Shown here in pieces: positions 7,184-8,669 of a DNA stretch of 32,000 bases. Origin of the DNA: Alphaproteobacteria bacterium (lineage in GTDB: Bacteria; Pseudomonadota; Alphaproteobacteria; Rs-D84); contig WRCC01000002.1 of NCBI GenBank assembly GCA_009784235.1, positions 16,373-48,372 of the forward strand, read 5' to 3'. The notes below the pieces were generated by a model. It searched no databases, was not told the origin of the DNA, and saw only the letters and a program-made list of their open reading frames with translations. Made by a program: the position numbers and the translations under genes. How positions within the stretch are numbered: the stretch's first letter is position 1; each line of letters starts with the position of its first letter.

Positions 7184-7216
7184 TAAAAAAACCGCGCCGA
7201 ATGGTGCGGTTTTTAT
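7184..7216. terminator. Bidirectional rho-independent terminator
   Basis: aaaaaaACCGCGCCgaatGGTGCGGTttttattttt, lying between convergent yebC and the three-gene operon. Confidence 0.6.
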
Positions 7217-7599
7217 TTTTGCTTTTTGTCTCTTTCTCTCCAAAATTTTTCATAAGCAGTTGGTGTCCTGCTAACATCTGCACTTAACTGTCTGTCATGC
7301 TGCAAGAATCTCTTAACTTCTGATATCAAAGGCTCAGGGTTTAGCAGCGGACATCTTTCCGGGGTGTAACCAATATCGCTCAGTCGTCGCAGAACATTTT
7401 TATATGAAAGCAACAAAAGCTGGTCTTCTTCGGACAGATTGTTCAAATCTTTATGCATAAAATAAAAGCGTCCCTGTGCAAATTCCTGCGCCAGCTCTTC
7501 ATTATCATAATCCTTTACTGTACGTACCGGGACATCATCTTCGACAATAACATCGTCAGTAAAGATATCTTTGGCAAGTGTTGCTTTTACATTATCCAT
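7213..7599 (-). CDS. Hypothetical protein, member 3 of a tandem paralog trio (KDLNNLS..D / EVKRFL motifs)
   Basis: 128 aa. It shares the motif FMHKDLNNLSEED, followed 35 residues later by EVKRFL, with the two upstream ORFs at identical spacing. I recognised no known domain. Confidence 0.75.
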   Translation of the reverse strand: MDNVKATLAKDIFTDDVIVEDDVPVRTVKDYDNEELAQEFAQGRFYFMHKDLNNLSEEDQLLLLSYKNVLRRLSDIGYTPERCPLLNPEPLISEVKRFLQHDRQLSADVSRTPTAYEKFWRERDKKQK

Positions 7600-7626
7600 A
7601 ATTATCTCGTTTGTTTTTATTCACGT

Positions 7627-8112
7627 TCAACGACAATTATTAATAAAAGACGCCGGTGCATTCTGGATTTCGACAAAGCCGCAGACTCTGGCCTTGCGGT
7701 ATAAGAATCTTTGTATCTCGGCATGCGCAATCCACCACCTGTAAACGGGTATTTCATAGTCATTGCTCAACGCATATTCAAAAACGCGTAAAATGTGTTC
7801 ATATTCTCGTCCGGCATCCTGTTCTTCTTTGCTTAAACAGTCAAGATTTTTACCTTCGAACAATTTCAAAAATTTCCTGTATTTGGCCGCAATATTTTCG
7901 CCATCTTTATGCATAAATTCTATTATTAATTTATAGTCGTAATTTGGAACAAATCGAACCATACTGATTGGTCCAGACTTGTACAGAACTACCCGTTTGC
8001 AGTTATCAAGCACCGGCGTGGTATTCTGGTTTGGTTCTTTGAATTCACGCCATGACATTATGTCACGATCCAAAAGTTCCCGCACTATTTCAACAATGTT
8101 CGAATTTTCCAT
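7627..8112 (-). CDS. Hypothetical protein, member 2 of the paralog trio
   Basis: Start at ATG 8112 (MENSNIVEI...), 16 nt after the upstream stop and preceded by aaagg. The track start at 8163 is a TTG. Motif GKNLDCLSKEEQ, followed 35 residues later by EIQRFL. Confidence 0.75.
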   Translation of the reverse strand: MENSNIVEIVRELLDRDIMSWREFKEPNQNTTPVLDNCKRVVLYKSGPISMVRFVPNYDYKLIIEFMHKDGENIAAKYRKFLKLFEGKNLDCLSKEEQDAGREYEHILRVFEYALSNDYEIPVYRWWIAHAEIQRFLYRKARVCGFVEIQNAPASFINNCR

Positions 8113-8128
8113 ATCGGTCGCCTTTGAT

Positions 8129-8605
8129 TTATTTTTTATTATTCGCAATTTCCGCTGCGACAATTCTGTACGCAGCCATTTTTCTGGACGTCATTTCATT
8201 ATAATATCCTGTGACTGACCGTTCGGTCTTCTTGCTTCTGTTTGGTCCAGCCAATACGCGTTCTTCCTGTATCAAATCTGATCGGAATATTTTTACTTGG
8301 TTTTCCACAGTTTCCAGATTTACCCGCGCACAATTGTTTGGATTATGCATCAGCTTTGTATAGTATTTTCCCAAAAATACCTGATACGCTTTCATTACTT
8401 TCAAGTCTCTTGTCGACAGATTGTTCAAATCTTTATCCAGAAACATTCGGCGAAACTGAAAAAAGCGTGCATATTCTTTGTTATTTTTTTCTATCTCGTT
8501 CAATTCTCTATCGCTAAACACTTCGGATTGTTTTACACCCAACATATAAGACCCAATGTTATTATTGCCGGCCAAATAACCCTTTATCGACGGATTCATT
8601 TCCAT
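8129..8605 (-). CDS. Hypothetical protein, member 1 of the paralog trio
   Basis: Start at ATG 8605 (MEMNPSIKGY...), preceded by agggtggg. The track's GTG start at 8653 lies inside the promoter. Motif DKDLNNLSTRDL, then Cys +28 and VKIF. Confidence 0.75.
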   Translation of the reverse strand: MEMNPSIKGYLAGNNNIGSYMLGVKQSEVFSDRELNEIEKNNKEYARFFQFRRMFLDKDLNNLSTRDLKVMKAYQVFLGKYYTKLMHNPNNCARVNLETVENQVKIFRSDLIQEERVLAGPNRSKKTERSVTGYYNEMTSRKMAAYRIVAAEIANNKK

Positions 8606-8641
8606 TTTACCCACCCTTGCTTGGTTTGATTTAACAATAAC

Positions 8642-8669
8642 ATTGTATAACACAAAGTATATTTGTCAA
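8642..8669 (-). promoter_or_regulatory. Near-consensus sigma70 promoter of the three-paralog operon
   Basis: Minus strand reads TTGACA (8669-8664), a 16-nt spacer, then TACAAT (8647-8642), about 37 nt upstream of ATG 8605. Confidence 0.5.

Follow-up and report, generated by a model that had tools for sequence, protein, structure and literature searches.

A homologue-free trio of tandem genes in the variable yebC-ruvC junction of a genome-reduced alphaproteobacterium

What might explain why, in an alphaproteobacterial genome reduced to 875 kb, the housekeeping genes yebC and ruvC are held apart by three short opposite-strand genes for which none of the databases searched offers a relative? The three genes, labelled P1, P2 and P3 like their products (Table 1), lie in a 32,000-nt stretch of an assembly of the Rs-D84 lineage (GCA_009784235.1, contig WRCC01000002.1, positions 16,373 to 48,372 of the forward strand); this whole stretch is called the window, and coordinates refer to it unless prefixed G000 or L0xx. 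An earlier note on this DNA, written from the sequence alone, had seen here a self-contained operon of three paralogues and had proposed an accessory system of undescribed function, with phage or plasmid interaction or a host-interaction effector family as candidates. The reading that we favour, with moderate confidence, is that the trio is a genuine operon whose genes form a taxonomically restricted family, that it sits in a junction prone to insertions, and that it encodes what are probably non-enzymatic helical binding proteins. The junction would ancestrally have been tight and, in a genome-reduced termite-gut clade, would repeatedly have taken up unrelated lineage-specific genes; in this species the family would have grown by tandem duplication in place. 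The products would be small, soluble and mostly helical, possibly acting together, in a role that is probably dispensable and lineage-specific, plausibly dealing with the partner cells on which the bacterium depends.

The genome comprises 874,588 bp in three contigs, and is 98% complete and about 92% coding. Judged by YebC, its nearest public relatives are metagenome-assembled genomes labelled Alphaproteobacteria or Rickettsiales, whose isolate names (Nt197P3, Th196P3 and others) come from metagenomes of higher-termite guts (PMC7024585, PMC4660790). Rs-D84 has been described as a group of genome-reduced, probably partner-dependent gut bacteria (PMC12306168).

An orphan family at a variable junction

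None of the three products matches a Pfam-A or NCBIfam family at the curated cut-off, and no family is common to the three; the best matches below the cut-offs are to PilN (18.8 bits against 22.8), SLATT_5 (13.9 against 60) and TetR (12.6 against 25). In a word-indexed search of 5.8 billion protein clusters each protein finds only itself, and a sequence-profile search of the PDB gives nothing below E 0.1. HMMER, run with an 87-column profile of the shared core on 1.84 billion sequences representing 15 billion proteins, recovered the trio and one further sequence, P0004 (E 1.6e-9), and nothing more. Closer to home, a six-frame search of 40 relatives with each trio protein gave chance-level matches only, as did the core profile against the six-frame translations of 300 genomes of the order, where the best match (E 0.005 per genome) lies antisense to uvrA and was set aside as chance. 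Within the trio's own genome, blastn and tblastx find no further copies and no source sequence, the sole match outside the locus being a 39-nt terminator-like sequence on another contig. In the databases searched, the trio is a taxonomically restricted (orphan) family, free of homologues outside its own locus.

P0004, a 300-aa ENA metagenome protein built of tandem repeats of 56-57 residues, was rejected as a homologue. Its four near-identical repeats each match profile positions 15-47 only, its pairwise match to P1 is weak (E 0.015 over 17 residues), and unrelated Pfam families, 25 in all, match it as well (the clathrin adaptor small chain, for example, at 2.5e-9), the behaviour of a sticky repeat and a false positive. 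Its HMMER E-values are inflated, with 25 Pfam families at E < 1 and two of them above the gathering cut-offs, which calls for care wherever a profile search adds up the scores of near-identical repeats.

Could a mobile element have carried the trio in between yebC and ruvC, or could the genes be a module for defence or anti-defence (toxin-antitoxin-like or anti-phage, for instance) that integrated there? A self-contained unit with its own promoter and terminator, on the opposite strand, lower in GC than its flanks and placed in an insertion hotspot, would fit such an origin. However, no PADLOC defence family and no PHROG matches P1, P2 or P3 at E <= 1; nothing matches in 50,697 phage records or, with the core profile, in IMG/VR; and a search of 72,556 plasmids yields a single chance match at E 0.7. 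No direct repeat brackets positions 7180-8718. The genes within 4 kb encode SecB, MltA, DciA, two small membrane proteins, RuvC, YebC, RuvA, MnmE and a CDGSH protein, and include no integrase, transposase or defence-island neighbour; the flanks are housekeeping genes, and the in-frame codon usage of the trio is host-like. These results largely refute the idea, to which we now give very little credence, and they lend no support to the proposal of a system for phage or plasmid interaction.

The position of the trio is better understood by comparison. In E. coli, yebC is followed directly by ruvC, and in outgroup Alphaproteobacteria the two genes are co-directional and separated by at most 300 nt in 33 of 35 loci, the gaps in the yebC-ruvC-ruvA series ranging from 30 to 290 nt. 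The earlier note was right that the pair is usually adjacent and co-directional. Of 21 loci in close relatives, 10 have a gap of at most 60 nt (among them L080, matching G003), 7 hold 0.36-4.4 kb of unrelated ORFs (open reading frames) in the junction, and 4 are rearranged, with ruvC not within 6 kb. The trio, which widens the gap to 1.5 kb and removes the canonical adjacency, is in this light an insertion relative to an ancestral tight junction, as had been claimed. Like the proteobacterial yebC-ruvC(-ruvAB) cluster, the locus has yebC and ruvC present, intact and co-directional; unlike it, opposite-strand genes with a promoter and a terminator intervene, and ruvA is inverted. This last feature is not peculiar to the trio genome: ruvA is inverted, divergent and immediately upstream of yebC throughout the termite-gut clade, whereas in the outgroups yebC, ruvC and ruvA all run in one direction (loci L069-L124). 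The clade-wide inversion suggests that rearrangement of the ruv cluster preceded the first insertions into the junction.

Each genome has inserted genes of its own here, even within the genus. In G001 the slot (L039:6035-8578) spans 2.6 kb and encodes, on the opposite strand from yebC and ruvC, three proteins with signal peptides. A tandem pair among these consists of coiled-coil paralogues of 197 and 288 aa (E 2e-37) that are absent from all other of the 40 relatives. In G004 the slot encodes an exported repeat protein of 859 aa, and in G002 the spacer is only about 94 nt. No relationship between the trio and the slot genes of relatives was found by hidden Markov model (HMM) searches, BLASTP, tblastx or hhalign. 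Compared across these genomes, the yebC-ruvC junction is a recurrent entry or birth site for lineage-specific genes, and the trio is this species' version. We know of no earlier description of this junction as a hotspot. Arrays of heptamers (CAGTAAT and variants), which together form an inverted dimer, make up nearly all of the G002 spacer (L032:317-411), and such a repeat-rich "empty" junction may be relevant to its proneness to insertion.

The situation is in itself a known one, that of lineage-specific genes in a variable junction, and the novelty lies in the orphan family. The trio is reminiscent of orphan (ORFan) tandem families in variable hotspots: it is homologue-free outside one species-level lineage, its members are short, AT-rich and modelled with low confidence, they are tandem paralogues with signs of gene conversion, and they stand at a core-gene junction that varies between relatives. 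Unlike in such families, the trio occurs in an 875-kb, 92%-coding reduced genome, where expansions are less expected, and its duplicates are old (22-33% identity) and yet all intact. With empty junctions in some species and different orphan families in others, and with two species of one genus each carrying its own tandem paralogues, the junction offers a natural comparative series for gene birth.

Paralogy, shared motif and patches of DNA identity

How closely are the three genes related? P1 and P3 match by BLASTP at E 2e-9, with 33% identity over 95 residues, and their Smith-Waterman score of 94, against a shuffle mean of 29.6, is reached by none of 2000 shuffles (Gumbel p 5e-8). P2 and P3 match more weakly (BLASTP E 2e-4; none of 2000 shuffles, p 7e-4), in an alignment that is collinear and ungapped over 87 residues. 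The similarity of P1 to P2 is not significant on its own, by BLASTP or by shuffling (p 0.075), although the same motif aligns in the same register, and it is P3 that links the other two. Judged from these alignments, P1 and P3 are certainly paralogues and P2 is probably a third, more divergent member of the family. The earlier claim of three paralogous genes is accordingly firm for P1 and P3 and probable for P2.

The shared motif, [KN][DN]L[ND].LS..[DE], is limited to these three ORFs in a six-frame translation of the 875-kb genome (1.75 million residues). From its lysine to the glutamate of the second conserved element, P2 and P3 both have a distance of 44 residues; in P1, where that element reads VKIF, the distance is shifted by one. 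Alignment of the three proteins bears out the motif instances and the spacing described in the earlier note, including this shift. Invariant across the three are F, K, L, L, S, Y, L and F, together with an acidic residue three positions past the serine. Outside such positions divergence is considerable, the paralogues sharing 22-33% of their protein and about 40-50% of their nucleotide sequence.

Against this background of saturation, short patches of DNA identity stand out. An exact 22-mer is common to P1 (within 8415-8443) and to the P3 patch listed in Table 1; it codes for (D/H)KDLNNLS, and none of 300 codon shuffles matches it. In columns 9-28 of the P1-P3 alignment, 11 of 12 identical residues use identical codons, against 5 of 19 elsewhere. 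The same P3 patch has an exact 15-mer, TTTATGCATAAAGAT, coding for FMHKD, in common with P2 (7903-7917; 1 of 300 shuffles), and in P2 it sits 19 codons upstream of the residues that align opposite FMHKD of P3. The simplest reading of these sequences is local gene conversion between the tandem copies, together with a partial internal duplication in P2. A site acting at the DNA level is a possible alternative account. TTTATGCATAAA is a perfect 12-bp palindrome present in three genome copies, against 0.1 expected, at window positions 7450-7461 (P3) and 7906-7917 (P2) and at G000:C1:169633, all of which read F-M-H-K. The third copy falls in a 691-aa ORF, which we take from our own reading of the local sequence to be RpoD-like.

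Coding evidence and possible roles

Are the three ORFs genuine genes? A codon model trained on the 485 long ORFs of the genome gives in-frame scores of +0.31, +0.21 and +0.10 bits per codon for P1, P2 and P3, against a genome mean of 0.36 +/- 0.13, and both other frames are negative for all three (-0.47 and -0.37 in P1). The three ORFs, head to tail and 128-161 codons long, fill about 93% of a 38%-GC segment, in which the chance of 128 stop-free codons is estimated at about 1e-4. The codons of the invariant L..LS residues are CTT, TTA and AGC in P2 and TTG, CTG and TCN in P1 and P3; that the motif residues have been kept while every codon changed, including a two-step serine switch, points to selection on the protein. 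From these features we infer translation and protein-level constraint of the trio. An alternative code, with TGA as a sense codon and P2 and P3 fused through the two TGA codons between them, is not indicated: TGA is a normal stop here, ending 81 of the 485 long ORFs, and internal stops are absent from conserved genes. The locus is 100% identical at the DNA level in all six metagenome samples that carry it, and every contig with this exact YebC also has the trio, which is fixed in the sampled population.

The earlier note had allowed that an absence of homologues and of conservation would speak against its proposal. Homologues are indeed absent outside the locus, yet the ORFs are intact, show codon periodicity and keep the motif through different codons. 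The main rival reading is that these are young, weakly constrained genes: proto-genes with little or no function, recently arisen either de novo from AT-rich spacer or from an acquired fragment no longer recognisable, then duplicated, and open mainly through youth. Several observations weigh for it and against the operon of functional genes that we favour. The GC content of the trio, 0.37-0.39, bears out the claim that the segment is AT-richer than its flanks (long ORFs 0.469 +/- 0.038) and places the genes at about the 3rd-7th percentile, but it also equals that of non-ORF DNA (0.388); all three codon scores are below average, and that of P3 lies at about the 5th percentile of long ORFs. Both properties are also expected of very young or weakly constrained genes. 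The membership of P2 rests on a p of about 1e-3, and part of the P1-P3 similarity may stem from recent gene conversion and not from long-term constraint, the conversion-like patches pointing to recent DNA exchange. The structural models have a mean predicted local distance difference test (pLDDT) score of about 50, which does not establish a fold. The six samples, compared for nonsynonymous and synonymous change (pN/pS), show zero polymorphism, and no orthologues were found for such a comparison between species (dN/dS). No homologue turned up anywhere searched, and the same junction in relatives holds other short orphan ORFs.

Nevertheless, a youthful origin sits badly with protein identities of 22-33% and nucleotide identities of about 40-50%, which indicate old duplications, and keeping three frames open for so long at 38% GC would need selection. 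P2 has kept the motif through non-identical codons, a 92%-coding reduced genome should lose dead DNA, the promoter is near consensus and the terminator strong, and the sequence is fixed and identical in six samples. We therefore think it rather unlikely that the trio consists of proto-genes. If the trio is functional, it is a compact case of a new family arising and expanding in a strongly reduced genome, where gene gain is supposedly rare; at present it is one more cluster of hypothetical proteins.

What might the products do? They are hydrophilic (grand average of hydropathy -0.5 to -0.8), of 15-19 kDa, and no signal peptide or membrane segment was detected in any of them (maximum of the 19-residue Kyte-Doolittle windows < 0.6). 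AlphaFold2 (AF2), run on P1 and P2 with a three-sequence alignment, gives helical models of low confidence in which KDLNNLS occupies the loop before the second core helix, and the P2 model, compared with the PDB by Foldseek, returned nothing at E < 1. The pattern L-x-x-L-S-x-x-[D/E] is that of a hydrophobic staple with an S-x-x-[D/E] helix N-cap and core hydrophobics. As in the helix N-capping box (S/T-x-x-E) with its hydrophobic staple, the trio motif stands directly before a predicted helix in both AF2 models; the box is a structural motif and not a family, and it accounts for the conservation of the motif but not for a function. The conserved residues look structural, not catalytic or nucleic-acid-binding, which agrees, together with the lack of any family match, with the earlier note's failure to recognise an enzymatic or DNA-binding signature. 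The core unit would be a helix-loop-helix-helix with the N-cap motif and a hydrophobic core. Conservation of structural residues only would make the proteins most likely non-enzymatic protein-binding modules, and the complementary isoelectric points (pI; Table 1), together with co-transcription, suggest that P1, P2 and P3 may work together. The binding function, the hetero-oligomerisation and any export of the trio are guesses.

An effector role in host interaction is conceivable by analogy, because the genome has homologues of VirB4, VirD4, VirB9 and VirB10. Species-specific, AT-rich, paralogous, Sec-independent small proteins are typical of type IV secretion system (T4SS) substrates. One could imagine a fast-evolving paralogous family delivered through a putative chromosomal T4SS to a partner cell, as in Rickettsiales or Legionella. 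The ORFs resembling VirB4, VirD4 (the coupling protein), VirB9 and VirB10 score above the Pfam cut-offs; the trio proteins lack Sec signals, are hydrophilic, species-specific, AT-rich and paralogous, and have their own promoter; and each carries a net +3 charge within its last 25 residues. The order is, moreover, thought to be an obligate symbiont or parasite of other cells (PMC12306168). None of these features, the C-terminal charge included, is specific to effectors, however; VirB6/TrbL was not found by the Pfam search; the trio has no eukaryote-like or known effector domain; and it is unlinked to the T4SS genes, the nearest of which, VirB4, is about 48 kb away. We consider secretion as T4SS effectors unlikely.

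In comparison with the effector families of the Rickettsiales rvh T4SS, what is alike is the reduced genome with scattered virB/virD genes and the small, hydrophilic, species-specific, paralogous proteins without Sec signals and with positively charged C-termini; what differs is that the trio has no sequence or domain similarity to known effectors, which leaves a resemblance in genomic style only. The VirB4-, VirD4-, VirB10- and VirB9-like genes themselves lie at G000:C2:72230-74650, C2:191608-193791 and C2:223169-226373, scattered among dnaG, a rluD-like gene, mreB and other housekeeping genes, an arrangement reminiscent of the dispersed Rickettsiales rvh genes. A bolder extension of the favoured reading would make the junction a recurrent cradle for orphan families, each generated or captured independently by a different species and then duplicated in tandem, in which the trio has matured into a hetero-oligomeric factor, possibly exported by the T4SS, that acts on the partner cell; this too strikes us as improbable. 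If the proteins do act on partner cells, they would open a first way into the interactions of these gut Alphaproteobacteria, which are uncultured and metabolically dependent, with other organisms.

Transcription signals and neighbouring features

The features of the locus are collected in Table 1. The trio promoter is the top-scoring site in 6900-9000 and stands 37 nt 5' of the P1 ATG, within the 113-nt intergenic region between P1 and ruvC. The start of P1 is likely the ATG at 8605, because the alternative GTG at 8653 would lie 5' of the -10 box. The Shine-Dalgarno sequence of P1 is good (AAGGGTGGG, 5 nt 5' of the ATG), that of P2 moderate (AAAGG) and that of P3 weak; many genes here have none, for example ruvC and ruvA. 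The hairpin, with a 12-bp stem containing 6 G-C pairs, a loop of 4 and T runs on both strands, is flanked by the stop codons of yebC (7179) and P3 (7213-7215), overlapping the latter, and a scan of the region with Rfam gave sub-threshold matches to this terminator hairpin and nothing else. Transcription would proceed from the promoter through a leader of about 30 nt with the Shine-Dalgarno sequence, then P1, P2 and P3, to the hairpin shared with yebC. The trio is thus predicted, from its promoter and terminator, to be a self-contained, independently transcribed unit, and the minus-strand operon of three ORFs, the near-consensus promoter and the bidirectional terminator were all found as the earlier note had described them. 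With 1.5 kb of opposite-strand genes, a promoter and a terminator intervening, ruvC must have a promoter of its own, for which a weaker promoter-like site directed towards ruvC, at 8663-8692 (+), is a candidate; it overlaps the -35 box of the trio promoter back to back.

Table 1. Coordinates of the trio, its signals and its flanking genes in the window
Feature	Position	Strand	Description
yebC (TACO1/YebC family)	6463..7179	+	PF20772, PF01709; left flank of the insertion
Intrinsic-terminator hairpin	7187..7214	both	Bidirectional; common to yebC (+) and the trio (-)
P3	7213..7599	-	128 aa, pI 5.1; acidic N-terminus, shared core at residues 32-116, basic tail
P3 patch coding FMHKDLNNLS	7433..7461	-	29 nt; DNA-level identity within otherwise saturated paralogues
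P2	7627..8112	-	161 aa, pI 6.8; unique 69-residue N-terminal part, then shared core at residues 70-156
P1	8129..8605	-	158 aa, pI 9.6; predicted soluble and helical
Trio promoter, TTGACA-16 nt-TACAAT	8642..8669	-	11/12 sigma-70-type matches
ruvC	8719..9201	+	PF02075; right flank of the insertion; likely ATG 8719, frame open from GTG 8704

The spacing of the genes bears on a last alternative, that the ORFs are fragments of a broken gene, which once encoded a long repeat protein and was cut into three pseudo-ORFs by a frameshift and stops. The intergenic spacers are 16 nt (P1-P2) and 27 nt (P2-P3); P2 and P3 share a reading frame, with just TGA ACG TGA and eight sense codons between them, and the shared core recurs about every 160 residues. 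Set against this, each unit has its own ATG, an unrelated N-terminal part and a stop that falls precisely on the unit boundary, Shine-Dalgarno sites precede P1 and P2, and passing from P1 to P2 requires a change of frame. The regular use of TGA as a stop in this genome and the identity of the sequence in six samples also count against decay, and we find such an origin barely credible.

Two further observations concern the neighbourhood. Directly 3' of ruvC, at 9233-10022, lies another tandem pair of genes, which is kept near ruvC in several relatives. Their small paralogous products, of 151 and 98 aa, are 35% identical (E 1e-20), contain membrane-like hydrophobic segments and have no Pfam match on record. 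On the other side of the trio, at 4292-6443, the mnmE-like ORF and ruvA each contain, in frame, the peptide VGAHTCAPGREYAPL; it represents a short GC-rich repeat element that is translated inside two housekeeping genes.

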